A DNA stretch of 64,000 nucleotides from a phage. The position numbers and the translations under genes are program-made. The stretch lies in sequence record PV808484.1; one strand, given 5' to 3'. Each line of letters begins with the position of its first letter. The first letter of the stretch is position 1. Positions 5,755 to 58,482 of this stretch are shown here, in pieces. Under the pieces are notes generated by a model. That model worked only from the letters and a program-made list of their open reading frames with translations, did no database searches and was not told where the DNA came from.

Positions 5755-6153
5755 TTACATTACTTTAACACAAAACTCTCGTAAAAGAGTAGCGTCAGTT
5801 TCTTCCAACAGGTATTTACCAAGACCAATACCAAATCCTATTTCACCACTTTCAAAATGGAGGATTTGTATCTTTTCTCCACCAAGGTTAATTACTTTTG
5901 CTTTTCCAGGATTATCCAAAACATCTCGTATTGTATCCTGTAGTAACATAAGTTCACGTTTTGTGATAGTGGTTTCAGATATCTCTTTGTTTTCTACTCT
6001 CACTGTTAAACGGTTGTATCCACCAAAGAGACATAGTATTTGAATAAAAAAGGTATTATCTTGAGGTTCAACATCTTTTTTAGTTAGCTCAAGACGATTA
6101 GTTTCTCTACTGTAGAACGTCTCGACTAAGATTTTAGAACGATTATCTGTCAT
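5755..6153 (-). CDS. hypothetical protein
   Basis: 132-aa ORF in co-directional block. Confidence 0.5.
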   Translation of the reverse strand: MTDNRSKILVETFYSRETNRLELTKKDVEPQDNTFFIQILCLFGGYNRLTVRVENKEISETTITKRELMLLQDTIRDVLDNPGKAKVINLGGEKIQILHFESGEIGFGIGLGKYLLEETDATLLREFCVKVM

Positions 6154-6196
6154 TCAAGTCCTCATAATAACACACAATTATAATGTTTGTCAACAC

Positions 6197-24318: not shown

Positions 24319-24336
24319 TCTCTTCTCCTCTTTAAT

Positions 24337-24355
24337 GCGGAGGACAATCCTCCGC
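24337..24355. other. GC hairpin immediately upstream of TerC RBS
   Basis: GCGGAGGA-CAA-TCCTCCGC. Confidence 0.35.
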
Positions 24356-24395
24356 TCTATGTCTTATACTATAAACTGTTTTTAAAGAAAGTCAA

Positions 24396-45635: not shown

Positions 45636-45849
45636 TATTTTGAAAATTTTTATTTTTATAAAAAGGGGTGTGGGTTTCATGTACGGAAATCCACCCTCTG
45701 AATAATATATCCAGAGTAAGTATTATTCTGTACTCTGTTAATAAATTATTTAATTTGTTTGTTGGATTATGATATCTGGTTTTTAAAAGGCATACTATCT
45801 CTTAACTACTACTTATAACAGAACAGTAAAATCATTTTTATAAAAAGGA

Positions 45850-46055
45850 CAAAATTATTTAAAGTTTTTACAGATTTTTGGGTACAAATTTTGAAAATGA
45901 AAAGTTCAAGTTTGGTCAAAATTATTTAAAGTTTTTGTACGTATTTCCATCCAGATTTTGAAAATGAAAAGTTCAATTTTTTAAAAATTCCCCAGTTTAT
46001 TTAAAGTTTTTTTGCCTTTTTCCGTAGAAAAATCAAAAATGAAAAGTTCAATTTC
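45850..46055. repeat. three tandem ~67-bp direct repeats
   Basis: unit TATTTAAAGTTTTT ... TTTGAAAATGAAAAGTTCAA recurs at about 45856, 45923 and 45989. Confidence 0.6.
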
Positions 46056-46072
46056 GTGTTTTTATAGGTATG

Positions 46073-46190
46073 CGTATGATAATCATTCTCATTTGTAAAT
46101 GAGAATCATTATCATTTAATTATGTAAGTGATAATCATTCTCAGTAAGAGAATGAGAATCATTAGCAAATGAGAATTTTCTCATTTAGAG
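46073..46190. promoter_or_regulatory. cluster of three operator-like palindromes (Fur-box-like)
   Basis: GATAATCATTCTCATTT-GTA-AAATGAGAATCATTATC; GATAATCATTCTCA..GAGAATGAGAATCATTAGC; AAATGAGAATTTTCTCATTT. Confidence 0.5.
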
Positions 46191-46447
46191 AATAACGCGT
46201 AGGGGTGGTGTTTGTCTCGCGCTCCCGTGTCCCCTCGCCATACAATAAGAATAGCATAACCAACAACAAAAGCAAGCGATTATTTTTATCTTTACATTTC
46301 TTTACAAATTTATTTTAGACGAGCTACCGGCGATCAACCTTCCAACCAGTGTGCCCTGGTATGTTAGCCCCGCCTTTACGCCGTGGGGGTGGCGCTTCCT
46401 CTTCTGTATGTAAAACAGTATAAGCCCGATCCCTGGGCTTGTCAAGA

Positions 46448-46714
46448 TTATTTTTTGTTTTCTTGCCAGGATAGGACACCTAACCAAAAATACATGTCGC
46501 CCCGCGCCCCTGGCGGGATCTTGCTTTCCCCGCCGCCACTGCAAGCCCATAGATAACCATTTGCGAACGTATCAAAATGATCTATTTCTTCCACCTTATG
46601 ATCGCCCAGGTTGAGAACGGTTTCAACCTTTAAGCCCGTTGCGCTTGCTACCTGGTGCACCGTGCCGCCTTGCCAGCCTAATGAGTGCATGAGGTGTAAA
46701 GTAGTATTTGTCAT
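46448..46714 (-). CDS. hypothetical protein inside GC-rich island
   Basis: 88 aa from internal ATG 46714; opposite strand to neighbouring early genes; uncertain. Confidence 0.3.
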   Translation of the reverse strand: MTNTTLHLMHSLGWQGGTVHQVASATGLKVETVLNLGDHKVEEIDHFDTFANGYLWACSGGGESKIPPGARGDMYFWLGVLSWQENKK

Positions 46715-46824
46715 GGTATCGCCCTTTCTTTGATGTGCGCCCTGGTTGGCGCGGTAGAAAGATAATAGCCCCTTTCCTTTATAGATAGCAAGCAAAAAAG
46801 AAATGAAAAAAGATTAAAAAAGGG

Positions 46825-46853
46825 TTGACGTTCCTCACCTGGTAGCGTATTAT
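46825..46853 (+). promoter_or_regulatory. sigma70-like promoter
   Basis: TTGACG -17 bp- TATTAT; followed by strong SD and a 6-codon ORF (46907..46927). Confidence 0.45.
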
Positions 46854-46979
46854 TCATCTTGTCGAGGGGGGCGAGGCACAACGACAATAAACAAAAGGAG
46901 GGCGCAATGCAGGACGGGCAAAGGTGAGGATCTCCACAATCCACCGTCACAATAACATTACTTATAAAAGGTTGATAAC

Positions 46980-47075
46980 GATGATCAAGAAAGAAAACAG
47001 CTTGACGGTTGGAACGATTAACGCTATCATTTTCGCCGTTCCATTTTGGGTTGTAGTAGCGGTTATTATCTTTTA
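46980..47075 (+). CDS. small hydrophobic peptide (31 aa)
   Basis: MIKKENSLTVGTINAIIFAVPFWVVVAVIIF; AAAAGG upstream. Confidence 0.3.
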
Positions 47076-47130
47076 AAAATATTCTTGACAACGTTTTTTA
47101 ATCTGATAAGATGTATCACATAGGGCGGCA
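47075..47130 (+). promoter_or_regulatory. early promoter + 5' leader hairpin cassette
   Basis: TTGACA 47075-80, -10 TAAGAT, leader CACATAGG, hairpin GCGGC-AATAGT-GCCGC, ATG at 47165. Confidence 0.6.
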
Positions 47131-47164
47131 ATAGTGCCGCTCATAACAGAAGAGAGAAATAATC

Positions 47165-47437
47165 ATGGCATCATATAGCGCATCAATGATCGTAATGGGT
47201 ATCACTGGTAAACCTATGCGCGGTGGCGGATCTTTCGCTAACATCAATATTGATGGACGTTTATCCCTGGACGCAGCGATCACAGTGGCACGGGAAACAT
47301 TTAAAAAAGAATGTAATTTCAATAAACAAGATTATCTCGGTTTCGCTATTGAAAAAACCGCGCGATTTGTGGATTATAAAAGCCCGAAAATGATCGACAC
47401 TACACTAAAAGCGAAAGATGTAGCGTTTTTGCTTTAA
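47165..47437 (+). CDS. hypothetical early protein
   Basis: 90-aa ORF downstream of cassette. Confidence 0.5.
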   Translation: MASYSASMIVMGITGKPMRGGGSFANINIDGRLSLDAAITVARETFKKECNFNKQDYLGFAIEKTARFVDYKSPKMIDTTLKAKDVAFLL

Positions 47438-47447
47438 GACTTGACAC

Positions 47448-47508
47448 TGAAAAATAATTTGGTAATATATACCACATAAGGCGGGGAAATGGTTTCCCGC
47501 CAAGCCAT
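47448..47508 (+). promoter_or_regulatory. early promoter + 5' leader hairpin cassette
   Basis: TTGACA, -10 TAATAT, hairpin GGCGGGGAAA-TGG-TTTCCCGCC. Confidence 0.6.
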
Positions 47509-47526
47509 CAAAGAAAGGGTAACACA

Positions 47527-47889
47527 ATGAGCAAGCAAATCAATACTATCATGTTAAACCTGGTATCTTTCCGCGATGACGTGAAAAATCTTTCGCGTGA
47601 TGCAGTGGATGCACGGATCGAAAGCTATCGCACACAGATCGCAACATTACCGTTAAAACGTGATCAACATGCCGCTAATATGATGCTTGATGCTATGATT
47701 AAAAAGATGATTCAATGTGATCTTACTCTGGCTTATGAATATGCTGGCGATCTTTTTGTAACATATAACAAGCCCGTTCCAGGTATGAGCACCACGGAAG
47801 AATTGCATGCCTTAAATCTGCGACAAGATGCATGGGATAACATGCGCCGTGTTATGGTATGGGTAGAAAGCGGTAAAATTTACGAATAA
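47527..47889 (+). CDS. hypothetical early protein
   Basis: 120-aa ORF. Confidence 0.5.
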   Translation: MSKQINTIMLNLVSFRDDVKNLSRDAVDARIESYRTQIATLPLKRDQHAANMMLDAMIKKMIQCDLTLAYEYAGDLFVTYNKPVPGMSTTEELHALNLRQDAWDNMRRVMVWVESGKIYE

Positions 47890-47895
47890 AAACGG

Positions 47896-47949
47896 TTGAC
47901 ATTGCACTAAAACCTGATAAGCTATCTTAAAGCGGGAATAGTTCCCGCT
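47896..47949 (+). promoter_or_regulatory. early promoter + 5' leader hairpin cassette
   Basis: TTGACA, -10 TAAGCT, hairpin AGCGGGAA-TAG-TTCCCGCT. Confidence 0.55.
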
Positions 47950-47967
47950 TACATAGGATAAAACTTT

Positions 47968-48114
47968 ATGAAACAATATGTAATGAGTATTCACACCAAA
48001 AACGGCGCTACTGTTACGACTCCGGCACGGTTTGCACTTGTAAACCGTTGCAAGAGACTAAAACGAGAGCTAAAAAACAACCGTGCAACGGGCTTTAAAC
48101 GCTGGGGAGGATAA
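47968..48114 (+). CDS. small basic protein (48 aa)
   Basis: not in ORF track; ATG 47968 downstream of cassette. Confidence 0.4.
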   Translation: MKQYVMSIHTKNGATVTTPARFALVNRCKRLKRELKNNRATGFKRWGG

Positions 48115-48116
48115 TC

Positions 48117-48389
48117 TTGTTTTTTCTAAAAGTTTTTGATAATGTGATCGCTTTTGAACATGCTGCAACGTTCAACCTGGCGAGATACGCTATCAGGTTT
48201 AAAGATAATGTTTATCCCCGTGCTGGTGGCGGTTACACTATCTTTAATCATCGTAACGCTCAATTAACGGATATAACGAATCCAGATCCTGGAGTGTATC
48301 GCATAGGTTGGCTACCGTCAAAAGACGCGGCAAGCATGTTTAAGGTGTGTAAACTACTAACAGAAGAGGCGAACGAACATGGGGCGTGA
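48117..48389 (+). CDS. hypothetical protein (TTG start)
   Basis: 90 aa; TTG start with GGAGG 9 nt upstream. Confidence 0.35.
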   Translation: MFFLKVFDNVIAFEHAATFNLARYAIRFKDNVYPRAGGGYTIFNHRNAQLTDITNPDPGVYRIGWLPSKDAASMFKVCKLLTEEANEHGA

Positions 48390-48933
48390 ATATGTGATCC
48401 AGTCCTGGGTAAAGCATGATGCTGATGATCCGCGCATAATACCAGATGACATGATCGATCACATGGTAGGGTATAGCGGGGAGCAGATAGGAAATCGAGC
48501 GGCAAAGAGCAACGGTCACACAAAAACGCGATCCGTTCGCCCTGGTTGGCTGGCAAATGGTAACGCTGACATTGCAAGCGCCGCAGATCCAAGCGATGAC
48601 GCTAAAAATAATCCCTTATACAGCATTGATCCGGCTTTTAAGGTGTTAGAAGAGTATCCCGCTAAATTAGCCGCACTAGATAAAGCATATGAAGAAAAGC
48701 GCATGGCATGGACGGTATACAACACCGCTAAAATGGTGCTAGATGCAAAATTGATTAAAGCCCAGGAGAAGATCAATAAACTTGTTACCATAGCGCAAGA
48801 GGAAGACCAGGACGACCAGGAGGAAGAGGAAGAAATCATGCCTACCCTGGAAGAGGAAGAGATCCAGCCATACATGCCGACGGAAGAGGAAAAAAGACAA
48901 GCCCTAAAAAATTATGAAAATTGTGTTGTGTAA
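48379..48933 (+). CDS. hypothetical protein with acidic C-terminal tail
   Basis: 184 aa; E/D-rich C-terminus (EEDQDDQEEEEEIMPTLEEEE). Confidence 0.45.
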   Translation: MGREYVIQSWVKHDADDPRIIPDDMIDHMVGYSGEQIGNRAAKSNGHTKTRSVRPGWLANGNADIASAADPSDDAKNNPLYSIDPAFKVLEEYPAKLAALDKAYEEKRMAWTVYNTAKMVLDAKLIKAQEKINKLVTIAQEEDQDDQEEEEEIMPTLEEEEIQPYMPTEEEKRQALKNYENCVV

Positions 48934-48936
48934 GGC

Positions 48937-49042
48937 TTGACATATGCAAACAAGCCCCGTAATATGTACCACATAAAGCGGGGCAACGCCCCATAAGGTG
49001 AAATAAAAAATCACTTGACACCTGAAATCAGTAAGCTATAAT
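48937..49042 (+). promoter_or_regulatory. tandem early promoters
   Basis: TTGACA/TAATAT with hairpin GGGGC-AAC-GCCCC, then second TTGACA -16- TATAAT. Confidence 0.55.
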
Positions 49043-49079
49043 GCTTATATAGATTGAAACATTACTAAGGAATAAAAGC

Positions 49080-49259
49080 ATGGCTATTATTGCAAAGACT
49101 GAGATCGTAGGTTTAGATTCTATCATCCTGGCATATGAGGAAGCTATAGAAATGTATGTGGTTTCCTATGGTGATTATATCCGTGAATATAAATCTATTG
49201 ATCTAGCTTTTGAATGCTATATTCGCCAGGTCAATAAAGCCTATGATGATTATCGTTAA
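49080..49259 (+). CDS. small hypothetical protein (59 aa)
   Basis: not in ORF track; ATG 49080 with AAGGA upstream. Confidence 0.45.
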   Translation: MAIIAKTEIVGLDSIILAYEEAIEMYVVSYGDYIREYKSIDLAFECYIRQVNKAYDDYR

Positions 49260-49278
49260 AAGTTTTAGTCTTGTGCTA

Positions 49279-49307
49279 TTGACAACGAACGATAGTGCAA
49301 GCATAAT
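49279..49307 (+). promoter_or_regulatory. sigma70-like promoter
   Basis: TTGACA -17- CATAAT. Confidence 0.5.
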
Positions 49308-49354
49308 AACTTTTATCGGGAATACTCCTAACTAATCAAAAGAGATTAAAGACT

Positions 49355-49720
49355 ATGGCTAAAAATATCAATGTTTCTGCTTATGCTACCCTGGCTAACA
49401 CTGCTAAAATTGAACTATCCAGCATTGAAGCGGTACATATTAGCGCCCGTCGCTGGTTTCAAAAGTCTTATGGTAACACTTATTTCTCTTTGATGGTTGA
49501 CGTTGAGATCGGCGGTAAACTGATTGAAGTCGTTAACGTTCCGTTTCACTATGGCTACGGGGATCATTTTGATACCGTTGCCCTAGAAGAGTTTAGCAAG
49601 GTTATCAACCTGGAAGGTAAAGAATTTTCAAATTATGCCTACCTTTCCCGTTTTTGCCGTGATAATGGGATCGCTGTATACAGTCATGCAAGCGATGTTA
49701 AACGTAAAAAAGATTTATAA
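49355..49720 (+). CDS. hypothetical early protein
   Basis: 121-aa ORF. Confidence 0.5.
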   Translation: MAKNINVSAYATLANTAKIELSSIEAVHISARRWFQKSYGNTYFSLMVDVEIGGKLIEVVNVPFHYGYGDHFDTVALEEFSKVINLEGKEFSNYAYLSRFCRDNGIAVYSHASDVKRKKDL

Positions 49721-49726
49721 AAAGCA

Positions 49727-49898
49727 TTGACAGCACGAATAAAAAGCGTAAAATGTTTCATATCAGGACGGGGAACGAAGTAACACCCCGTTAAGTAGCC
49801 CAGGAGTAAGACACACGAAAAACTCCCCTGATAAAATAGTTTGACAATGGTTTCTAATAACGTATAATACTTACATCGAGAGCGGGAACACTTCCCGC
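49727..49898 (+). promoter_or_regulatory. tandem early promoters, each with leader hairpin
   Basis: TTGACA/TAAAAT + ACGGGG..CCCCGT hairpin; TTGACA/TATAAT + GCGGGAA-CAC-TTCCCGC. Confidence 0.55.
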
Positions 49899-49923
49899 CT
49901 CACTGAAAAAAGAGATTAACATC

Positions 49924-50163
49924 ATGGCTAAATCTAAAATGTTCTTAGGTCACAAAAACAAAACTCATTGGAATGTAAGCCTTTGGATCAACAACGATGA
50001 AGGTTTTTATAATCTTGCGCGTGAATTTATCGCAGCTAACACCAATAAGAATGACGCAGCGCGTGATATGATGTTATTTCTTGAAAGTATGGATCAAGAT
50101 AAAACGCCAGACGGATTCAAGTTCAGTAAAACCGCGATCCGTGCCGCTATGGTTGGAATGTAA
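49924..50163 (+). CDS. hypothetical early protein
   Basis: 79-aa ORF. Confidence 0.5.
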   Translation: MAKSKMFLGHKNKTHWNVSLWINNDEGFYNLAREFIAANTNKNDAARDMMLFLESMDQDKTPDGFKFSKTAIRAAMVGM

Positions 50164-50258
50164 AGGAGACATAAAAATGAAACATCGTTCGACCTATCTC
50201 ACAAAACGTTTTAGCTTAGATCATAAATTGGGCTATTACGGAAGAAATAGAAAATAAT

Positions 50259-50317
50259 TTGACAACGTTTTAAATTAGTGTAAGATATATCACATAGGGC
50301 GGGAAATGGTTTCCCGC
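50259..50317 (+). promoter_or_regulatory. early promoter + 5' leader hairpin cassette
   Basis: TTGACA, -10 TAAGAT, hairpin GCGGGAAA-TGG-TTTCCCGC. Confidence 0.6.
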
Positions 50318-50340
50318 CAAATCAAAGAAAGGTTATCATT

Positions 50341-50568
50341 ATGGCTATCATTATTGTTCGCGTATCCGGTACGGTTGGAAGCTCCCAGGTAGTAGCAGTT
50401 ATCACAGAGAAGAAAGGGGATGATCTTCACTCTTCCTTGAATAGTTGGGCGGTCGCTAATTTTGGTCAGTGGTCGAGCGTCGAGTATATCGAATCCTACC
50501 AGGTGCCGACGATTAGCCTAACCGATTTAAATGTTGATCGCTTGTTGTGCCTGGATGGATTAAACTAA
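50341..50568 (+). CDS. hypothetical early protein
   Basis: 75-aa ORF. Confidence 0.5.
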   Translation: MAIIIVRVSGTVGSSQVVAVITEKKGDDLHSSLNSWAVANFGQWSSVEYIESYQVPTISLTDLNVDRLLCLDGLN

Positions 50569-50576
50569 AAATAATC

Positions 50577-50632
50577 TTGACAAGATAACTAAAATCAGTA
50601 AAATGTAATGCATAGGGCGGCAATAGTGCCGC
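50577..50632 (+). promoter_or_regulatory. early promoter + 5' leader hairpin cassette
   Basis: TTGACA, -10 TAAAAT, hairpin GCGGC-AATAGT-GCCGC. Confidence 0.6.
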
Positions 50633-50655
50633 TCATAGTAAGAGAGATTATCAAA

Positions 50656-50871
50656 ATGGCTAATATCCGCACACTGTTAAAAAATGCAAGTCAAGTTTTA
50701 TTTTCAGATGACGAGTATTTCAACAAAGACATTACAGGCGTGAAAAATTTAAAAGACGTGAAGGATGTTATCGGTATCCGTGGATCTTTACGTAAAGGTG
50801 ACATATACGGTAACAAGGTGCAATATAAACTGTCAAAAGATTATGATTTTACTTTGACAATTATCAATTAA
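50656..50871 (+). CDS. hypothetical early protein
   Basis: start moved from track 50608 (inside leader hairpin) to ATG 50656. Confidence 0.5.
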   Translation: MANIRTLLKNASQVLFSDDEYFNKDITGVKNLKDVKDVIGIRGSLRKGDIYGNKVQYKLSKDYDFTLTIIN

Positions 50872-50882
50872 GGGATCACAAA

Positions 50883-51041
50883 ATGAAAACTTGCCAATGT
50901 GGTAAAAAGTCTATCTCTGGTTTAAAACGTGGCGTTGCTCTTTGTCAATATCACTATAACGCTCAAACGTGGGGTAAGCAGTGGGCGGATCAGATGGAAG
51001 AGGCAAAGAAAGAAAATATAAAAGTAGTTGCAAAGAAATAA
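50883..51041 (+). CDS. small Cys-containing protein (52 aa)
   Basis: not in ORF track; CQCG...CQYH. Confidence 0.4.
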   Translation: MKTCQCGKKSISGLKRGVALCQYHYNAQTWGKQWADQMEEAKKENIKVVAKK

Positions 51042-51066
51042 AAATAAAGTAAACTGTATTCATCAA

Positions 51067-51088
51067 GGCGGTGGAATAGCCCACCGCC
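51067..51088 (+). other. GC hairpin in intergenic leader
   Basis: GGCGGTGG-AATAGC-CCACCGCC, no -35 upstream. Confidence 0.4.
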
Positions 51089-51112
51089 TAACAAAGAGAA
51101 GAGGAAAACATC

Positions 51113-51283
51113 ATGATCACTTTCGCTACCCGTGAAGCCGCTCGCAACGTTGCACGTAAAGTTAACGCCGCCAACCTGGGCGCTACGTTTAAAGCCCCGG
51201 TGAAAGATGAGTCAGGAAAATGGATCTTCCCTGGTCTGCGTCACGCTGATAAGCTGGGAACATTAACGTTAAAAAATAAATAA
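51113..51283 (+). CDS. small hypothetical protein (56 aa)
   Basis: not in ORF track; ATG 51113, GAGGAAAA upstream. Confidence 0.4.
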   Translation: MITFATREAARNVARKVNAANLGATFKAPVKDESGKWIFPGLRHADKLGTLTLKNK

Positions 51284-51290
51284 GATCCGC

Positions 51291-51349
51291 TTGACAGTAG
51301 CATGATTTATAAGTAAAGTAACAACAACGGCGGGAAATGGTTTCCCGCC
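51291..51349 (+). promoter_or_regulatory. early promoter + 5' leader hairpin cassette
   Basis: TTGACA, -10 TAAAGT, hairpin GCGGGAAA-TGG-TTTCCCGC. Confidence 0.6.
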
Positions 51350-51369
51350 ATCAATAAAGAGATAAGATT

Positions 51370-51729
51370 ATGAAATCAGTAAAAGCAATCAAAACTTACA
51401 TTGTATCGGCTATTTCTTTTGAAGGTACTACAACCGAAAAAGAAAAAATCACCGAACTGATGCGCCGTTTTAATTCTGAATACTGGTATCCCGATAATCA
51501 AAAACGTTACAATTATAACGTGATCAAGGCGATAGCCTCATGGTTACAAGGTTTACCGTCAGACATTAACATCGCCTTTGATTATAACGAGATCGATCAC
51601 TTGTTAATTGAATGGAAGTACATAAAAGAAACAAGCAAAGAAACAACCGTTACCCGTGAGCGGGAAAATTATTGGTTATATATTGCAAGCATGATCGTAA
51701 TCCTGGCAAAACAGCATAACGTGGCGTAA
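51370..51729 (+). CDS. hypothetical early protein
   Basis: 119-aa ORF. Confidence 0.5.
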   Translation: MKSVKAIKTYIVSAISFEGTTTEKEKITELMRRFNSEYWYPDNQKRYNYNVIKAIASWLQGLPSDINIAFDYNEIDHLLIEWKYIKETSKETTVTRERENYWLYIASMIVILAKQHNVA

Positions 51730-51744
51730 TTAAGAGGAAGAAAC

Positions 51745-51882
51745 ATGAACGCATCACAGCAGATCGAAAAATTCAACCGCAGCAAGGCGCGTAAAGATTG
51801 GAACGAAGAGATCACCAAAAAAGGCGACAAGCGGAACAAAACAAAAAGAGATCGCAGCACAAAAAGACACTGGAACGAATAA
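51745..51882 (+). CDS. small basic protein (45 aa)
   Basis: not in ORF track; AAGAGGAAG upstream. Confidence 0.35.
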   Translation: MNASQQIEKFNRSKARKDWNEEITKKGDKRNKTKRDRSTKRHWNE

Positions 51883-51887
51883 CAAAA

Positions 51888-51912
51888 AAGGGCGCAATAA
51901 GCGCCCTTTTAG
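51888..51912 (+). terminator. rho-independent terminator
   Basis: AAGGGCGC-AATAA-GCGCCCTT then TT. Confidence 0.6.
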
Positions 51913-52000
51913 CTTATATAGAGGCTTGTTACCCATAGGCAATGGTAACGCCAGGGCAAGCCTATAAACAACGTTAGACGGCTTTACAGGAGCTTTAAAA

Positions 52001-52183
52001 ATGAGATTAGAAGAAATAAGCAAGGCACTAGCCCAGGGGCAAAGGTTATGCGCCAGATATCGTGATCAATATGGCTTCATAACTAGCGGCGTGATCCTGG
52101 GGATTGAAGGCAATAAGATTTTTATTGACACGTTGAAAAACGTTGTATATAGTGACAATATAATCTCAATAAAACATATATGA
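52001..52183 (+). CDS. hypothetical protein
   Basis: 60-aa ORF. Confidence 0.4.
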   Translation: MRLEEISKALAQGQRLCARYRDQYGFITSGVILGIEGNKIFIDTLKNVVYSDNIISIKHI

Positions 52184-52191
52184 GGCAAGAA

Positions 52192-52593
52192 ATGAAAAAC
52201 TTATTGATCGCTGGTTTACTCTCTTTTGGTATGGTTGGAACATCTAGCGCGGCGATATCCTCCACAGTAGCAGAATTAAGCGCCGTTGATGCAATGGAAA
52301 ACGTCATGCTTATTAATAATGCGATCCCCGATGAAATCATGGAGGATTCACACATGATCGCTTATGGTGCTGTTACACAACTAACGGCAAAAATAGATAA
52401 ATCTATTGTTAATGGCTTAAATGAAGATGTACCATGTGAAATTATTACCAGTGTGCTTACTACTCAAAATTTTACGCCGTGGTTAAAAAGTATTCAAAAA
52501 GTACACAGTACAGCCGCAGATCGTAGCAATGAAAAACTAGTGTCAGCACTTGCAACGTATACCCTAGCAAAATGCACCGAGATAAAAGATTGA
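52192..52593 (+). CDS. secreted hypothetical protein
   Basis: start moved to ATG 52192 (GAGG upstream); signal peptide MKNLLIAGLLSFGMVGTSSAA. Confidence 0.5.
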   Translation: MKNLLIAGLLSFGMVGTSSAAISSTVAELSAVDAMENVMLINNAIPDEIMEDSHMIAYGAVTQLTAKIDKSIVNGLNEDVPCEIITSVLTTQNFTPWLKSIQKVHSTAADRSNEKLVSALATYTLAKCTEIKD

Positions 52594-52618
52594 CAACATA
52601 GAAAGCACGTTATAAGAT
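52590..52618 (+). promoter_or_regulatory. sigma70-like promoter
   Basis: TTGACA ... TATAAGAT upstream of 52641 gene. Confidence 0.45.
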
Positions 52619-52640
52619 ACACACAACAAAGGAGAACTAC

Positions 52641-52943
52641 ATGAACGGCATAGCTAAAACGTTTTTTCTTTTTTCTGGTGTAAATGATCCATCAATAAAA
52701 GTCGATAGTGTAAAAGAAAACAATACTATCACCGCTAAATTGTTTCAAGATGAAACAAATAACGTGCTAATCATTAATCTTAAAGAAATAACTAAAGGTT
52801 ATTATACTATTGCTTACCATGCAATCTATCATGCTGGTACTAGTGAGGAAGTGCAAACAAGCAACAACGAAAGCGCGGCGCTACCTGGTGATCTGGTGCT
52901 GGGCGTTATCAGTTTAATTGTCAATGATTTTTTTAAGGAGTAA
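52641..52943 (+). CDS. hypothetical protein
   Basis: 100 aa; AAGGAGAA upstream. Confidence 0.45.
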   Translation: MNGIAKTFFLFSGVNDPSIKVDSVKENNTITAKLFQDETNNVLIINLKEITKGYYTIAYHAIYHAGTSEEVQTSNNESAALPGDLVLGVISLIVNDFFKE

Positions 52944-52947
52944 AACC

Positions 52948-53043
52948 ATGCCCTATTTACATTTATTTTTCGGTATCTTATTGACAGGATCTTTTTTCTT
53001 CTGTATGCTTGTTTCTATTGTAAACCACGTTTTAAGACATTAA
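52948..53043 (+). CDS. small hydrophobic peptide (31 aa)
   Basis: not in ORF track; AAGGAG upstream. Confidence 0.3.
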   Translation: MPYLHLFFGILLTGSFFFCMLVSIVNHVLRH

Positions 53044-53052
53044 GGAAACAGC

Positions 53053-53172
53053 ATGAAAATTATTCCCGTACAATATAGCGTAATAAATCCAGCATACGAG
53101 GAAGGAAGGAAAACAAGCATGGCTTTATGTTGTATTGCTACTATAGCCATGTTGTTATGCATTGTGTTTTAA
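53053..53172 (+). CDS. small peptide with hydrophobic C-terminus (39 aa)
   Basis: not in ORF track; AAGGAAACAGC upstream. Confidence 0.3.
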   Translation: MKIIPVQYSVINPAYEEGRKTSMALCCIATIAMLLCIVF

Positions 53173-53201
53173 TAGGTTTTATAGTTGTACGCTTTAAAGG
53201 C

Positions 53202-53253
53202 TTGACAATTTTTTGTTATGCTTTAAACTATATCTTGAAAACGGCAAAGGCCG
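53202..53253 (+). promoter_or_regulatory. early promoter + short leader hairpin
   Basis: TTGACA, -10 TAAACT, hairpin CGGC-AAAG-GCCG. Confidence 0.5.
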
Positions 53254-53272
53254 CAAACAAAAGGGTAAAATT

Positions 53273-53596
53273 ATGAAATCTGTGATCGGTGTTTATTTGG
53301 ATAACTCTGATTTTTTCTATCATCGCGCTCGTTTCCTTGATGCGATTGAAATGATAGAATCAGGCTTTAAAGAGTATCGCCTTGCACATGATGACCTGGA
53401 AGCATTACAGGGCAATAGTGTTTTTACATTGCAAGCTAAAGCACTATGCAAAAGCCGGATCGACATTGCGAGCAAAAAGATAGAACGCGGCATGTCCTGG
53501 TTGCGCACCGCAGAAATCAACATGGGGCAATGGTACGGCGAAAACTTAGAAAATAAACATGCTTTTGTCAATGTAGAAAATATTGAAGATTATTGA
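53273..53596 (+). CDS. hypothetical early protein
   Basis: start moved from track 53213 (inside promoter) to ATG 53273. Confidence 0.5.
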   Translation: MKSVIGVYLDNSDFFYHRARFLDAIEMIESGFKEYRLAHDDLEALQGNSVFTLQAKALCKSRIDIASKKIERGMSWLRTAEINMGQWYGENLENKHAFVNVENIEDY

Positions 53597-53658
53597 TTGA
53601 CAGCACACCTAACGGGTAGTATATTGTATCTCATAGAGCGGGGAAATGGTTTCCCCGC
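53597..53658 (+). promoter_or_regulatory. early promoter + 5' leader hairpin cassette
   Basis: TTGACA, -10 TATATT, hairpin GCGGGGAAA-TGG-TTTCCCCGC. Confidence 0.6.
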
Positions 53659-53678
53659 CATCAATAAAGAGATAAGCT

Positions 53679-53963
53679 ATGAAGATCACAAAAGCACTTT
53701 CCAACTATGCAGCACGTCGCGGATTATGTTTAACCGTTGAAAATTTAGGGAAAGAAGATTTTTTGTGCTTTTGGGAGCTTGAGAATGATAATGAGTGGAT
53801 CTTCTCTTATTCTATCTGCGAAGATCAAAACGGTTGTTTATTAACCTGGCGCGGTAATATCTATCTACCGGAAGAAATCAAAGAAGAATTACCAGGCACG
53901 ATCATGACTGAGAAACAGCTTAAGGAAGTGATCAATTTTGTAGGGCAAAACATTAAAAAATAA
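53679..53963 (+). CDS. hypothetical early protein
   Basis: 94-aa ORF. Confidence 0.5.
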   Translation: MKITKALSNYAARRGLCLTVENLGKEDFLCFWELENDNEWIFSYSICEDQNGCLLTWRGNIYLPEEIKEELPGTIMTEKQLKEVINFVGQNIKK

Positions 53964-53964
53964 T

Positions 53965-54021
53965 TTGACAGCAGAAAAACAACGTAGTAAAGTTTATCAC
54001 ATAGGGCGGCAATAGTGCCGC
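53965..54021 (+). promoter_or_regulatory. early promoter + 5' leader hairpin cassette
   Basis: TTGACA, -10 TAAAGT, hairpin GCGGC-AATAGT-GCCGC. Confidence 0.6.
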
Positions 54022-54044
54022 TCATAACAGAAGAGAAACAAATC

Positions 54045-54215
54045 ATGATCCCGACTATGTTTTATGTATCGCGCAAAGGTCACAATATTTTTTGGTCTGA
54101 AGATTTAAATGAAGCCATGACGTTTGCCCGTGATCGTGTTGCTATCGGTGGCGTTAACATTACTGTAACCGATGAAAATGGCATTGAATACTATAACGGC
54201 GACGATGAAGAGTAA
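54045..54215 (+). CDS. hypothetical early protein (56 aa)
   Basis: start moved from track 54015 to ATG 54045. Confidence 0.45.
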   Translation: MIPTMFYVSRKGHNIFWSEDLNEAMTFARDRVAIGGVNITVTDENGIEYYNGDDEE

Positions 54216-54260
54216 TTAACAAGGCGGGGAGTATTCCCGCCGTCAATAAAGGATAATATC

Positions 54261-54398
54261 ATGAAAACTTTCAACGCAACAGCATCAACAATTGGTTATA
54301 TTATCACCGTGCAAGCTATTGATCTAGTAGCTGCAACAAACAAGATTAAAAACATGATCCCTGTAGGCAGTGATTTTTCCGTTTGGGAAGTAAAATAA
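54261..54398 (+). CDS. small hypothetical protein (45 aa)
   Basis: not in ORF track; preceded by GGCGGG..CCCGCC hairpin and AAAGGA. Confidence 0.4.
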   Translation: MKTFNATASTIGYIITVQAIDLVAATNKIKNMIPVGSDFSVWEVK

Positions 54399-54401
54399 AT
54401 C

Positions 54402-54463
54402 TTGACAGTGATTTGTTATTTGATAAGATGTACTACGTAGGGCGTGGCAATAAGGCAACGCCC
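54402..54463 (+). promoter_or_regulatory. early promoter + 5' leader hairpin cassette
   Basis: TTGACA, -10 TAAGAT, hairpin GGGCGT..ACGCCC. Confidence 0.55.
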
Positions 54464-54484
54464 CACATCAGAAAGGGAAAGATT

Positions 54485-54721
54485 ATGACTATAGCAACAG
54501 TATTAACCGCCGTTAAAACCGCCGAATCATCCGGCTTGCATGTTGAGATTATAGATCAACCAGGTGGCGATCTCCTTGTCCAGGTTTACCCGCCGAAAGT
54601 AGGGGATGATTATTATTGGTGCTATTCTGATACGTTCGAACAAGTAGACACGAAAGCGATCACGGCTTTTATTTTAAAAGCTATTGAAGAAAATAACTTT
54701 CATTATAACATCAATCAATAA
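54485..54721 (+). CDS. hypothetical early protein
   Basis: start moved from track 54383 to ATG 54485 (AAAGGGAAAG upstream). Confidence 0.5.
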   Translation: MTIATVLTAVKTAESSGLHVEIIDQPGGDLLVQVYPPKVGDDYYWCYSDTFEQVDTKAITAFILKAIEENNFHYNINQ

Positions 54722-54763
54722 ACCATAAGCGGGGCAGTAACGCCCACTAATGAGGGTAAAATC

Positions 54764-54868
54764 ATGTTAGAGAAAATTTTCACGGTTGTAGTAGTGGGCC
54801 TGGCGTTATCGGTTGGAGTGGTTGCAACTATGGCTAACATGATTCTATCTTCTCACGGTATTGGATAA
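54764..54868 (+). CDS. small hydrophobic peptide (34 aa)
   Basis: not in ORF track; GAGGGTAAAATC upstream. Confidence 0.3.
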   Translation: MLEKIFTVVVVGLALSVGVVATMANMILSSHGIG

Positions 54869-54878
54869 GGTGAATCAA

Positions 54879-55094
54879 ATGATCACGAATAAGACAGGTA
54901 AAACAGAATTTTTACGCGGCTTGCAAATAGGTAAACCTGAGATCTGGCATTGCACTAAATCCGCGCATAATGAAATGAAAGATTTTACCGCTACTTTACA
55001 ACGTGTTAAAATATCTATCACACAGAAAAAAGCCTTGTTAGTAGTAGAAAACGAGATCCCGCAAACTATTATTATTGTCGAGCGTACAGCATGA
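54879..55094 (+). CDS. hypothetical protein
   Basis: start moved from TTG 54861 to ATG 54879. Confidence 0.45.
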   Translation: MITNKTGKTEFLRGLQIGKPEIWHCTKSAHNEMKDFTATLQRVKISITQKKALLVVENEIPQTIIIVERTA

Positions 55095-55477
55095 AAACAG
55101 AAATCATTATTGAAATCATCAACGGTTATAAAGAAGCCTTTATTTTTGCTGAATCCGCCAGGGATCATGAAGGTAATTTTATTGATAACTTGACTGATTA
55201 TGATTTTTCAGATCAAGCCCATCAGCGGATCATTCATGACGTAGCGGCTTATTGTGATGCCAATGATGCCGCTATCTCTGAGGCAATGAGCGACGGCGCA
55301 ACAGCCAACCAGATCGGGAATGATTTACATTTTACCCGTAATAGTCACGGCGTAGGCTTTTGGGATCGCCCTGAAATATACACTACTAACACCGCCAACC
55401 GCTTAACTAATGCAGCTAAATTGATGCCATCGGTGCATGCTTACATTGGTGAAGATAATTTGATTTATATTGAATAA
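55091..55477 (+). CDS. hypothetical protein
   Basis: 128-aa ORF. Confidence 0.5.
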   Translation: MKTEIIIEIINGYKEAFIFAESARDHEGNFIDNLTDYDFSDQAHQRIIHDVAAYCDANDAAISEAMSDGATANQIGNDLHFTRNSHGVGFWDRPEIYTTNTANRLTNAAKLMPSVHAYIGEDNLIYIE

Positions 55478-55483
55478 AAAGTA

Positions 55484-55541
55484 TTGACACCGATCCCCAA
55501 TATGGTACTATTTACCACGTAGGCGGGAAATGGTTTCCCGC
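55484..55541 (+). promoter_or_regulatory. early promoter + 5' leader hairpin cassette
   Basis: TTGACA, -10 TACTAT, hairpin GCGGGAAA-TGG-TTTCCCGC. Confidence 0.6.
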
Positions 55542-55565
55542 CAGGTAATCAAAAAGGTAAATACT

Positions 55566-55955
55566 ATGCGCAACCTGGTTTCTGTTTCTAACGTTGAAAA
55601 ATTTCAATCTTTACAGGGTATCGTTAACAACGTAGCGCCTTTTTTAGTCAACGGCTTGATTGCAAAGATGAAAAATAAACATCATGCGGCATGGTCTGCT
55701 TACTGCTTTGATAATGATGAAAAAGCGGCTGAAATGATGTTAAATATGCTGTTAGACAGTGTAGAATCATCTTTACCGGAAAACATCGCAGAAGAGATCA
55801 CCTATCGTTATAATATGGCGATCACTTACCAGGAGGTTGCGCAATTTAATATGATGGACGATGACGAACAACAGGATCAGGAAATTTTCTGGGAGTATGC
55901 AGATCGTCAATCGGCTTTTGATGAAAAGTTAGCGATGTATTATAACGAATATTAA
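55566..55955 (+). CDS. hypothetical early protein
   Basis: start moved from track 55530 to ATG 55566. Confidence 0.5.
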   Translation: MRNLVSVSNVEKFQSLQGIVNNVAPFLVNGLIAKMKNKHHAAWSAYCFDNDEKAAEMMLNMLLDSVESSLPENIAEEITYRYNMAITYQEVAQFNMMDDDEQQDQEIFWEYADRQSAFDEKLAMYYNEY

Positions 55956-55970
55956 TACACGGTAAAAGAA

Positions 55971-55996
55971 AGGGGCGCACTAAGCGCCCTTTTTTG
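55971..55996 (+). terminator. rho-independent terminator
   Basis: GGGGCGC-ACTAA-GCGCCCT followed by TTTTTTG. Confidence 0.65.
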
Positions 55997-56341
55997 TATT
56001 CTTTTTTCACAATGGAAGCGACACGTAAAGAATAGGCGTAAAAGGTGGCGTAAAACCATCTAAAACCGACTGTAACCGCTTAAACAAGGCAGGGATGATT
56101 AATCCCCTTACCAGGATGAAAAAGCTGTTAGAGAGCTATTCATAGCGTTTAAAGCACATAGGAAATAATTTGCTTTTTATCTTGCCTTTTATCCTGCTTT
56201 TGATTATTATTATGGAACGGGCGGCACCTGGGGACAGGGGAAGATAATCACCGGAAGATCCCGCTATATATTGATAGCTAATACCTATTAAACAACAAAA
56301 CATCAAAGGGATAAACTATCAAATCTTTACAATCCTACCTA

Positions 56342-56400
56342 TTGACACACGATCACCCTTATACTAATATGTATCCCGTAGGCGGGAAATGGTTTCCCGC
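56342..56400 (+). promoter_or_regulatory. early promoter + 5' leader hairpin cassette
   Basis: TTGACA, -10 TAATAT, hairpin GCGGGAAA-TGG-TTTCCCGC. Confidence 0.6.
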
Positions 56401-56419
56401 TTGATATAGGAATCATACC

Positions 56420-56650
56420 ATGATCGAACAAATTAAAAGCACTCAAAATGTTAACGGCAATGTGTTCCACTTTATCGGCAATAAAGGAAAAGGCGTACCC
56501 TACGCCGCCGTAACCGTGCAACCTAATGGCGATTATTGGTTTACCGTGTACGGATCATACTCTTTCGGACGCCCGGCACATGATAAGATCTTGCAAGCGG
56601 TTAAACCTGCGGGGAAGAATATTACAGCAGAAAAATTTTATAAAAAATAG
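56420..56650 (+). CDS. hypothetical early protein
   Basis: 76-aa ORF. Confidence 0.5.
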   Translation: MIEQIKSTQNVNGNVFHFIGNKGKGVPYAAVTVQPNGDYWFTVYGSYSFGRPAHDKILQAVKPAGKNITAEKFYKK

Positions 56651-56651
56651 C

Positions 56652-56680
56652 TTGCTTTATTTCTTCTGTTAACTTATAGT
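56652..56680 (+). promoter_or_regulatory. sigma70-like promoter
   Basis: TTGCTT -17- TATAGT. Confidence 0.45.
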
Positions 56681-56725
56681 TATCGCGTAGGGCAAACAAT
56701 TTTAAACGGTAGACGAGGAATCACC

Positions 56726-57109
56726 ATGAGCAATATCATCAACCTGGCAGCGACTGTAAACGGTAAAGACTTTAACGGCGCTGTAGACCGTGATCCTATG
56801 TGGTGCTTATCAGTGTTTAAAGGCGATCTGGTTGAAGTTAGAACAACCGAAGGGTATAGCGATGATTATAAATGCGAGATCCATTTACATAACTGGTACA
56901 CGGGGAAAACTTATGCGCTGAATCACGCGTTTATCGGGAAAATTGAATATCGCGAGATGATCGACGATGAAACGGGGCAAGATTTTAGTGATTATGTTTA
57001 TATTCGTTCAGAAACATTAGCCGAACGTTTGATCGAGAAAATGAAAGCAAAAAATAAAATTAATTTAGCTCATTGGCTTGATATAACAAATGATCCGGCT
57101 TACAAGTAA
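56726..57109 (+). CDS. hypothetical protein
   Basis: 127-aa ORF. Confidence 0.5.
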   Translation: MSNIINLAATVNGKDFNGAVDRDPMWCLSVFKGDLVEVRTTEGYSDDYKCEIHLHNWYTGKTYALNHAFIGKIEYREMIDDETGQDFSDYVYIRSETLAERLIEKMKAKNKINLAHWLDITNDPAYK

Positions 57110-57123
57110 ATAACATTTCATAC

Positions 57124-57150
57124 CAGGGCGCACAAAGCGCCCTTTCTTTT
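57124..57150 (+). terminator. rho-independent terminator
   Basis: GGGCGC-ACAAA-GCGCCC followed by TTTCTTTTT. Confidence 0.65.
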
Positions 57151-57354
57151 TACCTAAATAAAGATGATAGCTTTTACCTATCAAAAACATTCACCGAAAA
57201 AAGTGAATAGATCGCGGTATCGAGCTAATCAAGGAGCAGATGAACAACCATACCATGAAGATCATAAGGCGCTTACAACGTGTTTTAAACCGCTTATTTT
57301 TAATTTCTCCATGTAACTATCTGGCAAAAACAGCCTTTTTCGTGTCTTTCCTCT

Positions 57355-57435
57355 TAAGTGATAATCATTCTTATTTATAGCTGATTATTTATGCAATAAA
57401 CTGCATAATGCAATAATGATAATCATTCTTAACTT
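57355..57435. promoter_or_regulatory. pair of Fur-box-like sites
   Basis: GTGATAATCATTCTTA at about 57358 and AATGATAATCATTCTTA at about 57414. Confidence 0.45.
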
Positions 57436-57439
57436 ATGA

Positions 57440-57780
57440 CCATCTAACCTATAAAATAATAAGTTATCTAACTAAATTAAAGCTAATTATTTCACCTTTA
57501 TTTATAACTTACTGTTACTATCTCATTGATAACCTTATATTAAACAACAATAACTAATATAAATCATTACTAAGCTAAATATAATCTATCTAACCTTTAA
57601 AACTATAACTATAATCTATCGAATTGTTGCACAAAGTAACTATTAAATTGTTAGTAACATTACTAAATAATTCATATCCTATCTATTTATGATCTAATCT
57701 TTACTTTCCTATCTATTACCTAAATAATCCTATCATACAGTTACCATTTCATGTAATAATCATTTCATACAATAACTATA
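57440..57780. repeat. AT-rich iteron-like short repeats
   Basis: recurring CTATCTAACCT / CTATCTAT / ATAACTATAA words in 340 bp without coding potential. Confidence 0.45.
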
Positions 57781-57837
57781 ACAAGAAATATAATTCGCAA
57801 GCGTATCATTAGCAGCCTATGCCGGACACATAGGCGG

Positions 57838-57985
57838 CTAATAATAACGCAACTACACACCCCACATAATAACCATCACCGATAGTTATTATTTGTGCTT
57901 ATGTAGCTTGCAACAATTGCAAGCGCAACAATATACATGGTATATTGTATCCCTTACATTGTTGCGGTGCGTTATTATTAGCTAA
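57838..57985. repeat. long-range inverted repeat with internal palindrome
   Basis: GCTAATAATAACGCAAC ... GTTGCGGTGCGTTATTATTAGC ~110 bp apart; internal CTTGCAACAATTGCAAG. Confidence 0.45.
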
Positions 57986-58282
57986 TGTTTGGAACATTGG
58001 CTATAATATAAGCTAAATAATAAGCTATTCAATAATAAACATAATGAATAATGACACTGATGATCATAATGCGCCACCTTCCAGGGGGCGCTATGTGAAC
58101 ACAAAGAAATCTTTCTTGTCAAGAAAAATATTAACACTATTGCGCAAAATTATTTATGTCTGAATAGATGATTTTTCATACTATTGTTATTATTTATCGG
58201 CCCTAACTATTGCCTATTTGTTGAGCCTACTTTCTTAAAAGCGCAATAAATCAGAATTATCTTGATTTTTAGGGTGTTTTAT

Positions 58283-58305
58283 AGTATAGAAAATATGCAA
58301 ATGAT
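58283..58305. promoter_or_regulatory. Fur-box-like site (17/19 match to GATAATGATAATCATTATC)
   Basis: GCAAATGATAATCATTATC read directly. Confidence 0.5.
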
Positions 58306-58482
58306 AATCATTATCAGCTATCTTCCACGGGTGGCACTATTTCACGCAGGATCATTTCATTTGGCAAGGTGTATATAGATGTTTAGACTTGCCAAGCCAT
58401 TGATTTACTTAGAATTTATCTGTTTTGTTGTGAGTAGTACCTTTCTTGCTCAGAAAATAATCAAAAGTCTTATAAGTCATTG

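Follow-up and report, generated by a model that had tools for sequence, protein, structure and literature searches.

Promoter and stem-loop cassettes resembling PeSLs, with the hairpin in the 5′ leader, in the early gene array of a phi92-like phage

The phage DNA analysed here, a 64,000-nt stretch of record PV808484.1 (the window), carries an array of ~32 small rightward genes (26–184 codons each) in which one unit, composed of a sigma70-type promoter, a GC-rich hairpin, a Shine–Dalgarno (SD) sequence and an ATG, is repeated again and again. These units are best described as cassettes resembling the promoter-early stem-loops (PeSLs) of T4-type phages, found in a new phage lineage and with the stem-loop relocated to the 5′ leader. 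PeSLs were described in the pairs RB49/phi1, PST/T4 and nt-1/KVP40; they combine a sigma70 early promoter, a G/C-rich stem-loop and an SD/ATG, lie in hyperplastic regions, and have been linked to the shuffling of modules and the formation of mini-circles (Arbiol et al. 2010, PMC2839356; Comeau et al. 2014, PMC4122927). They are the closest described system and are known only from T4-type phages. We consider it moderately likely that the array consists of PeSL-like cassettes serving both early expression and gene shuffling, with the hairpin as a 5′-leader stabilizer or insulator of the mRNA. This RNA role is one that we infer; the hairpin is most plausibly an mRNA stabilizer or insulator and not a terminator.

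The 9.5-kb region that holds the array is colinear with Escherichia phage EmilieFrey (locus tags bas61_*, isolated on E. coli K-12) at 97.6% identity, and many other Justusliebigvirus phages (phi92-like, Stephanstirmvirinae) match it at 95–97% identity with gaps. From its ~97% identity to Justusliebigvirus, the window is assigned to a phi92-like myovirus of E. coli and not to the Tevenvirinae. The array genes are annotated as hypothetical in every record examined, and a Pfam scan of 10 cargo proteins left nine without a significant family and matched one to a domain of unknown function (DUF) only. The cargo is thus a set of small ORFans in a hyperplastic early region.

Each unit has the same order: an A/T-rich stretch, TTGACA, 16–17 nt, a −10 hexamer (TAAGAT, TAATAT, TATAAT and TAAAGT among others), a leader of 9–11 nt of the type (A/G)CAT/CGTAGG, mostly ending in CATAGG or CGTAGG, the GC-rich hairpin, an unpaired A/G-rich stretch, a weak SD and the ATG. 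The strict pattern TTGACA-N16-18-TAnnnT was found at 19 sites on the plus strand of positions 46800–56700, against 0.18 expected from 300 dinucleotide shuffles, and a perfect stem (at least 5 bp, at least 4 of them GC) followed within 25 nt at 11 sites, against none in the 300 shuffles. Once imperfect stems are included, a GC-rich hairpin follows 15 of the 19 promoters, and 13 cassettes are complete with SD and ATG (Table 1). TTGACA is present in 18 of the 19 array promoters, their spacers are 16–17 nt long and the sequence upstream is A/T-rich. Beyond the complete cassettes, the array includes an orphan promoter with hairpin (48937), a promoter with a different hairpin (49727), three promoter-less hairpins (51066, 54223 and the degenerate 54729) and five promoters without a hairpin (49015, 49279, 52125, 52590 and 56652). 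The stereotyped unit proposed in the original prediction is therefore real; its figure of at least 14 repeats was correct, and its coordinates were right to within ~10 nt (the hairpin placed at 47115 lies at 47123–47142, that at 47487 lies at 47480–47501 with one extra G). Absent from it were the degenerate hairpin at 54729, a minus-strand cassette at 24395–24316 that lies outside its range, the role of the cassettes as junctions of gene gain, loss and replacement, and the PeSL precedent (PMC2839356, PMC4122927).

The complete EmilieFrey genome has no annotated RNA polymerase, so the early genes must be transcribed by the host sigma70 holoenzyme; the assignment of the promoters to the sigma70 type is supported. 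A T7-like promoter reading, suggested by the resemblance of the leader TCACATAGGG to the T7-class CACTATAGGG, was rejected because the complete relative has no annotated phage RNA polymerase.

The position of the hairpin in the transcript is nearly constant. With transcription starts inferred from −10 spacing alone, it begins at ~+3 to +5, leaving a predicted 5′ overhang of 0–8 nt, mostly 3–5 nt, and the distance from stem end to ATG in the window is 17–26 nt. Ten loci gave 70 unique promoter-linked hairpins; pairing starts 9–11 nt after the −10 hexamer in 51 of them, and the stems end 13–28 nt (median 21) before the ATG. The leader sequence is divergent in cassettes c03, c05 and c08, yet the stem still falls within the first few transcribed nucleotides. 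Folding of the leaders gave −13 to −16.7 kcal/mol (z-scores of −2.5 to −5.3), with the remaining leader, including the SD, unpaired in every case; leaders of the array promoters that have no hairpin were unstructured. The earlier placement of the hairpin at the predicted 5′ end of the transcript agrees with this geometry.

The hairpin is also conserved, as had been proposed, and chiefly in its stem. Among strict orthologues of 12 cassettes, variable columns amount to 7% in the stem, 26% in the loop and 15% between stem and ATG, compared with 3% in the −35 hexamer, 27% in the spacer, 12% in the −10 hexamer, 10% in the leader and 7/3/19% at codon positions 1/2/3. The stem is under purifying selection, and the loop is not. 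The few stem changes are G·U to G-C or A-U to G·U (sense strand), paired insertions or indels affecting both arms, or swaps to a different hairpin subtype between unchanged flanks; across phages, three different hairpins occupy the c11 slot alone. In 17 distinct equal-length hairpins, changes on both sides that keep the pair occur at 7 of 9 pairs. Paired cells make up 96% of this set, compared with 78% after shuffling and no more than 62% in slid controls; since the rows were harvested as hairpins, the informative figure is the count of both-sided changes and not the percentage paired. Pairs were counted on a centre-aligned set of equal length, as a MAFFT alignment was unusable (unequal stem lengths put the 3′ arms out of register), and an arm-permutation test on pairs derived from minimum-free-energy folds was set aside as circular, its input being 100% paired by design. 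A strand-neutral census of unique hairpins counted 552 Watson–Crick, 20 G·T, 8 A·C and 20 other oppositions, the excess of G·T over A·C being a modest bias toward pairing in the sense-strand RNA. The sense-strand changes between G·U and G-C and between A-U and G·U fit a putative RNA-level role such as 5′-end stabilization. In phage KMB37, the orthologues of the loops at 47939–47941 and 50623–50626 are exact reverse complements of those in the other phages (TAG to CTA; ATAG to CTAT) with unchanged stems, the pattern that template switching or inversion leaves at a DNA palindrome.

The cassettes coincide with the points at which related phages differ in gene content. BLAST comparison of the region with 7 non-colinear relatives yielded 39 unique breaks of colinearity, 23 of which fall within cassette spans accounting for 18.4% of the region (p = 2e-8); 34 of the 39 lie in non-coding DNA or at most 8 nt from the end of a coding sequence, and ~10 lie inside a hairpin. 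Single cases illustrate how these breaks may have arisen. Where the window has the c12 hairpin, the gene 54485–54721 and the remnant hairpin h3, phages Paula and VivaForever have a single cassette with hairpin GGGCGGGGCAATAAGGCAACGCCC. The h3 element (54729–54745) is a shortened, internally deleted duplicate of the c12-type hairpin, lies to the right of the inserted gene and is followed by the original SD; a gene held between duplicated hairpin halves would be the expected product of a module recombining into a resident cassette. Other modules were inserted within promoters, namely a 114-nt module at 49776–49862 (relative to Paula and phi92) and the gene 50883–51041, which in the window replaced the −35 hexamer of the truncated cassette h1, preceded in Paula by TTGCAA-16-TAAACT. 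Paula, ZYD and KMB37 carry a replacement of the module that the h2 hairpin (54223) bounds on its left side. Phage EC_OE_11 has neither the c14 hairpin, nor the gene 56420–56650, nor the next promoter (n4), and its junction lies in the shared CGTAGGG leader. In Phapecoctavirus ESCO13 the same genes are reordered, with breaks in the seven cassettes c01, c02, c03, c08, c10, c12 and c13. Judged from these alignments, the cassettes are the linkers at which genes have been inserted, deleted, replaced and reordered among relatives, and the promoter-less hairpins are truncated or duplicated cassettes left by gene insertions. Copies without a promoter had been taken as a sign that the hairpin can act independently of transcription initiation; as h1 lost its −35 hexamer to an inserted gene and the element at 54729 is a duplicated half, these remnants provide no evidence for such independence.

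The distribution of the hairpin ties it to the array and not to phage promoters in general. The complete EmilieFrey genome contains 74 sigma70-like sites (at least 10/12 matches), with a leader hairpin of at most −10 kcal/mol at 16 of them. Of these 16, 13 fall inside this 9.3-kb array, one is the isolated minus-strand copy and the rest are ordinary terminators beside chance promoter-like strings, whereas leaders are plain at ~55 other sigma70-like sites; this makes the hairpin a feature of the hyperplastic array. With one 94-nt cassette as query, matches were found at 463 places in 143 phage records, in Justusliebigvirus, Phapecoctavirus, the Vequintavirus FV3 and a few Enterobacter phages, and the leader motif and the GCGG/CCGC base of the stem are conserved across Justusliebigvirus, Phapecoctavirus and FV3. 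Phage FV3 has native cassette variants (GGCGGGAA-AAC-TTCCCGCC), and at its locus 6001–6610 phi92-type cassettes, 93.6% identical to those of the window over the matched 47 nt, precede exactly ORF162 and ORF161, both of which lack an rV5 homologue. This suggests that cassette plus gene were transferred between phage subfamilies.

The likeness to PeSLs extends to several features: a near-consensus sigma70 promoter with A/T-rich DNA upstream and an adjacent stable G-rich/C-rich stem-loop, followed by the SD and start codon of a small ORFan; clustering into dense arrays within a hyperplastic early region; copies where close relatives differ by insertion, deletion or replacement; degraded half copies beside indels; and a gene between duplicated cassette parts, as the mini-circle integration model predicts. 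Nevertheless, there are clear differences. PeSLs occur in the Tevenvirinae, whereas the present cassettes belong to the Stephanstirmvirinae (phi92-like) with copies in a Vequintavirus. PeSL stem-loops lie mostly between or over the −35 and −10 boxes or upstream of the promoter, but here the stem-loop is always in the leader, downstream of the predicted start and at a fixed distance. Moreover, a leader motif of the CATAGG type is conserved here, a T-run is missing, and the terminator role claimed for PeSLs is unsupported in silico. No description of promoter-hairpin cassettes in phi92-, phAPEC8- or rV5-type phages was found in the literature searched, which did not extend to the phi92 genome paper. 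Papers on rV5, on CB7/CR3 (Certrevirus) and on the O177 phages mention sigma70 early promoters or terminators but not a promoter-hairpin cassette; in those on rV5 and Certrevirus, the sigma70 early promoters are placed among short open reading frames (ORFs) with no mention of a hairpin.

In the reading that we favour, a strong host-sigma70 promoter would give a transcript that starts with ~3–5 unpaired nt and continues with a stable GC-rich hairpin and an open A/G-rich leader containing the ribosome-binding site of a small ORFan. The hairpin would deny RppH and RNase E a single-stranded 5′ terminus, leading to longer-lived early messages, and would insulate the ribosome site from upstream sequence both in the primary transcript and in read-through transcripts from the preceding cassette, so that every shuffled gene would meet the same expression context. 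Recombination between copies of the shared cassette sequence (promoter, leader motif and hairpin) would insert, delete, replace and reorder the genes. In E. coli, RppH and RNase E both need a single-stranded 5′ end, which is why 5′ secondary structure stabilizes messages, and the 5′ untranslated regions of ompA and papA carry 5′-terminal stabilizing stem-loops (reviewed in PMC3997798). By analogy, a hairpin 3–5 nt from the 5′ end with an open ribosome site is the arrangement expected of a stabilizer; the cassettes share with the ompA/papA type the E. coli host, a stable hairpin predicted to lie a few nucleotides from the 5′ end and an unstructured ribosome-binding region after it. The T7 gene 10 transcripts likewise have a 5′ stem-loop. 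The cassettes differ from the ompA/papA type in forming a family of repeats before many genes, in being recombination linkers as well, and in that their stabilization is predicted only; in some copies the predicted overhang (0–8 nt) is longer than is thought optimal. A further rationale, that the phage stimulates RNase E through an Srd protein and its mRNAs need protection, was dropped, since tblastn with the 'Srd-like' gp11 of rV5 found no homologue in either the window or EmilieFrey.

Several points weigh against this interpretation. Five array promoters and ~55 elsewhere have no hairpin, which shows that the hairpin is not required for early expression. Cassettes c02, c05 and c10 have 5–8 predicted unpaired 5′ nucleotides, which is marginal for 5′-end protection. 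G·T exceeds A·C only modestly, in copies that are not independent of one another, and the conservation of the hairpin could partly stem from recent spread or gene conversion of one cassette. As BLAST segments naturally end where conserved linkers meet divergent genes, the enrichment of breaks shows conserved linkers and does not by itself show that recombination initiates there. Transcript 5′ ends, half-lives and reporter data for this phage group were not found in the literature searched.

Among the alternatives, the one that survives best gives the hairpin no RNA function and takes it as a DNA-level feature of a self-propagating linker, either a neutral passenger that gene conversion has homogenized or a hairpin/cruciform that stimulates or targets recombination, an idea also raised by the authors who described PeSLs. 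The confinement of the hairpin to the hyperplastic array and its absence from ~55 other promoters, the ~10 breakpoints inside hairpins, the gene enclosed by duplicated hairpin halves, the swapping of hairpin subtypes between slots with identical flanks and the exact inversion of the KMB37 loops, as template switching at DNA palindromes predicts, are all in its favour. However, the distances to the −10 hexamer and to the ATG are tightly kept even where flanks differ, G·U is tolerated in the sense strand more than A·C, the stem is as conserved as first codon positions are, and many junctions lie in the promoter or leader and not in the hairpin, as plain homology-driven exchange predicts. We regard this alternative as unlikely.

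A second alternative is that the hairpin and the CA(T/C)(A/G)TAGG leader together form a site for a phage or host protein, whether for antitermination of the nut/boxB type, for a repressor of translation or early shut-off, or for processing. A lambda-type nut site consists of boxA plus a boxB hairpin, and the order of promoter, short conserved motif and small hairpin in early transcripts could be read as resembling it; the leader motif and the GCGG/CCGC stem base are kept beyond the needs of pairing in the three phage groups, and several 'putative transcription factors' are annotated downstream in the genome. Against such a site, loops vary widely (TGG, ATGG, ATAG, TAG, CAC, AAC, GTA, TTG), and inner stems also differ between copies; the loop varies in sequence and length even within one orthologous slot, although binders of the boxB type read the loop. 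Three cassettes keep the hairpin without the leader motif, and having nut-like sites at 14 promoters in 9 kb seems redundant when only three terminators are present. Unlike lambda nut, the cassettes have an unconserved loop, far too many copies for the terminators present, no identified N-like protein and no sequence similarity to it. Across 46000–58000, the Rfam covariance models gave no match at the gathering score and only three sub-threshold matches at chance level, none of them on a cassette hairpin; the RT-17 match at 48982–49080 is sub-threshold. A binding site for a common regulator, one of the functions first proposed, is weakened by this variation, and we judge a protein-bound site distinctly improbable.

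Still less probable is the reading originally given to PeSL stem-loops, in which the hairpins are terminators or attenuators that isolate each gene from upstream transcription. The hairpins do lie between genes, and the authors who described PeSLs reported that one RB49 stem-loop, when inserted between promoter and lacZ, reduced expression to the same degree as rrnB T1 (PMC2839356). In the array, however, the 10 nt after the stem contain 0–2 T in the cassette hairpins against 4–7 in real terminators. A terminator scan of the plus strand called no cassette hairpin, while three canonical terminators (51886, 55967 and 57125) are present in the same array, and GC-rich hairpins elsewhere in the window are classic terminators with A-run, stem and T-run. 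Furthermore, each hairpin lies downstream of its own promoter, so that an efficient terminator would abort the cassette's own transcript. Several cassette hairpins are labelled 'terminator' in the Paula record (LR865361), but mostly on the opposite strand, which is gene-free there; these labels are probably an artefact of automated terminator prediction.

To a similarly small probability we assign the proposal that the hairpin is a dedicated recombination site, recognized as folded single-stranded or cruciform DNA by a phage recombinase or a structure-specific nuclease, and that the array is an integron-like platform in a virulent phage which exchanges promoter-equipped cassettes within and between the Stephanstirmvirinae and Vequintavirinae. 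Integron attC sites are short imperfect palindromes at cassette boundaries, and REP/BIME elements lie between cistrons, where REP can protect mRNA; the hairpins resemble both as short imperfect palindromes that punctuate arrays of small genes. The array, by contrast, has no associated integrase-type recombinase, its junctions also fall outside the hairpin, every unit brings its own promoter (integron cassettes have none) and its sequence has no similarity to REP. The weakest reading, that the nascent-RNA hairpin acts co-transcriptionally at strong promoters to aid escape or prevent backtracking or sigma-dependent proximal pausing and has no part in mRNA decay, is hardly credible, since it is drawn purely by inference from the fact that nascent hairpins limit backtracking and, although every cassette combines a perfect TTGACA −35 with a hairpin that is complete by ~+25 to +30, equally strong promoters in the array (49015, TTGACA-16-TATAAT; 52590) have none.

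Table 1. Cassettes, related elements and other features of the window. Cassettes marked complete have promoter, hairpin, SD and ATG; hairpins are written arm-loop-arm.
Feature	Span, strand	−35 / −10 / leader	Hairpin	ATG	Remarks
c01, complete	47085–47167 +	−35 47085–47090; TAAGAT 47107–47112; CACATA	GGGCGGCA-ATAG-TGCCGCTC, 47123–47142	47165	ΔG −14.4, z −5.0
c02, complete	47441–47529 +	−35 47441; TAATAT 47463	GGCGGGGAA-ATGG-TTTCCCGCC, 47480–47501	47527	one G·U
c03, complete	47896–47970 +	−35 47896; TAAGCT 47918	AAGCGGGAA-TAG-TTCCCGCTT, 47930–47950	47968	stem from ~+1, no ACATAGG leader before it
c04, orphan	48937–48992 +	TAATAT 48960	GGGGC-AAC-GCCCC, 48980–48992		no gene directly after; then a second, hairpin-less promoter (49015–49042, ATG 49080)
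Promoter with different hairpin	49727–49840 +	TAAAAT 49749	ACGGGG-12 nt-CCCCGT, 49768–49791		then ~50 nt non-coding
c05, complete	49841–49926 +	−35 49841; consensus TTGACA-16-TATAAT	GCGGGAA-CAC-TTCCCGC, 49882–49898	49924	loop CAC in window, TAG in five relatives
c06, complete	50259–50343 +	−35 50259; TAAGAT 50281	GGCGGGAAA-TGG-TTTCCCGCC, 50298–50318	50341	
c07, complete	50577–50658 +	−35 50577; TAAAAT 50599	GGGCGGCA-ATAG-TGCCGCTC, 50615–50634	50656	
h1, truncated cassette	51050–51115 +	residual TAAACT 51050–51055	AGGCGGTGG-AATAGC-CCACCGCCT, 51066–51089	51113	
c08, complete	51291–51372 +	−35 51291; TAAAGT 51314	GGCGGGAAA-TGG-TTTCCCGCC, 51329–51349	51370	
c09, complete	53202–53275 +	−35 53202	CGGC-AAAG-GCCG, 53242–53253	53273	weak hairpin (4-bp stem, ΔG −6)
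c10, complete	53597–53681 +	−35 53597; TATATT 53620	GCGGGGAAA-TGG-TTTCCCCGC, 53638–53658	53679	
c11, complete	53965–54047 +	−35 53965; TAAAGT 53988	GGGCGGCA-ATAG-TGCCGCTC, 54004–54023	54045	
h2, promoter-less hairpin	54223–54263 +		GGCGGGGA-GTA-TTCCCGCC, 54223–54241	54261	7 nt past upstream stop codon
c12, complete	54402–54487 +	−35 54402; TAAGAT 54424	GGGCGTGGC-AATAAG-GCAACGCCC, 54440–54463	54485	imperfect hairpin
h3, hairpin remnant	54729–54766 +		GCGGGGCAGTAACGCCC, 54729–54745	54764	followed by SD
c13, complete	55484–55568 +	−35 55484; TACTAT 55506	GGCGGGAAA-TGG-TTTCCCGCC, 55522–55542	55566	
c14, complete	56342–56422 +	−35 56342; TAATAT 56365	AGGCGGGAAA-TGG-TTTCCCGCTT, 56380–56402	56420	
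n4, degenerate cassette	56652–56728 +	TTGCTT-17-TATAGT; CGCGTAGGGC	none	56726	
Isolated cassette	24316–24395 −	TTGACT-16-TATAGT; GACATAGA	GCGGAGGA-TTG-TCCTCCGC, 24355–24337	24318	GAGGAG before ATG
Intrinsic terminators inside array	51886–51910 +; 55967–55995; 57125–57143		stem (GGGCG at 51886)		contrast class; A-run, stem, T-run
Fur-box-like palindromes	46095–46113, 46148–46166, 57412–57430, 58297–58315				non-coding zone just upstream of early array, and again just downstream

Some further features of the region lie outside the repeated unit. In the segment 49727–49840, ~110 nt after a consensus-like promoter contain no ORF and include a second possible stem; this module is present in the window and EmilieFrey and missing from Paula and phi92, and it may encode a small RNA. 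Past the terminator at 55967–55995, ~350 nt (55996–56341) have no convincing plus-strand gene. A 56-codon minus-strand ORF at 56136–56306 is annotated in some records, and the segment contains GC-rich structured stretches (GGAACGGGCGGCACCTGGGGACAGGGG) that are conserved in relatives and in FV3. Where the leftward and rightward gene arrays diverge, three direct repeats of ~70–79 nt (72–73% identity) occupy A/T-rich non-coding DNA at 45834–46054, next to the cluster of Fur-box-like palindromes; the stretch could be an origin or a regulatory region. Five matches to GATAATGATAATCATTATC with at most 3 mismatches were found against 0.03 expected, which hints at iron-responsive control or titration of host Fur. 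Finally, 19 records named 'Campylobacter phage' (e.g. A150 and A145, host C. jejuni) are ~95% identical to the region, and their organism or host assignment looks doubtful.

Annotators now label such hairpins as terminators, often on the wrong strand, and the cassettes may be of use as compact, strong, ready-made expression units for E. coli. The fixed position in the 5′ leader makes it testable whether the stem-loop serves RNA (stability, insulation) or DNA (recombination). If the favoured reading is true, promoter-plus-stem-loop cassettes would not be peculiar to T4-type phages, and they would represent a solution, convergent or shared, by which large virulent phages maintain a rapidly evolving pool of early genes for host takeover or anti-defence that can be swapped while expression stays undisturbed.

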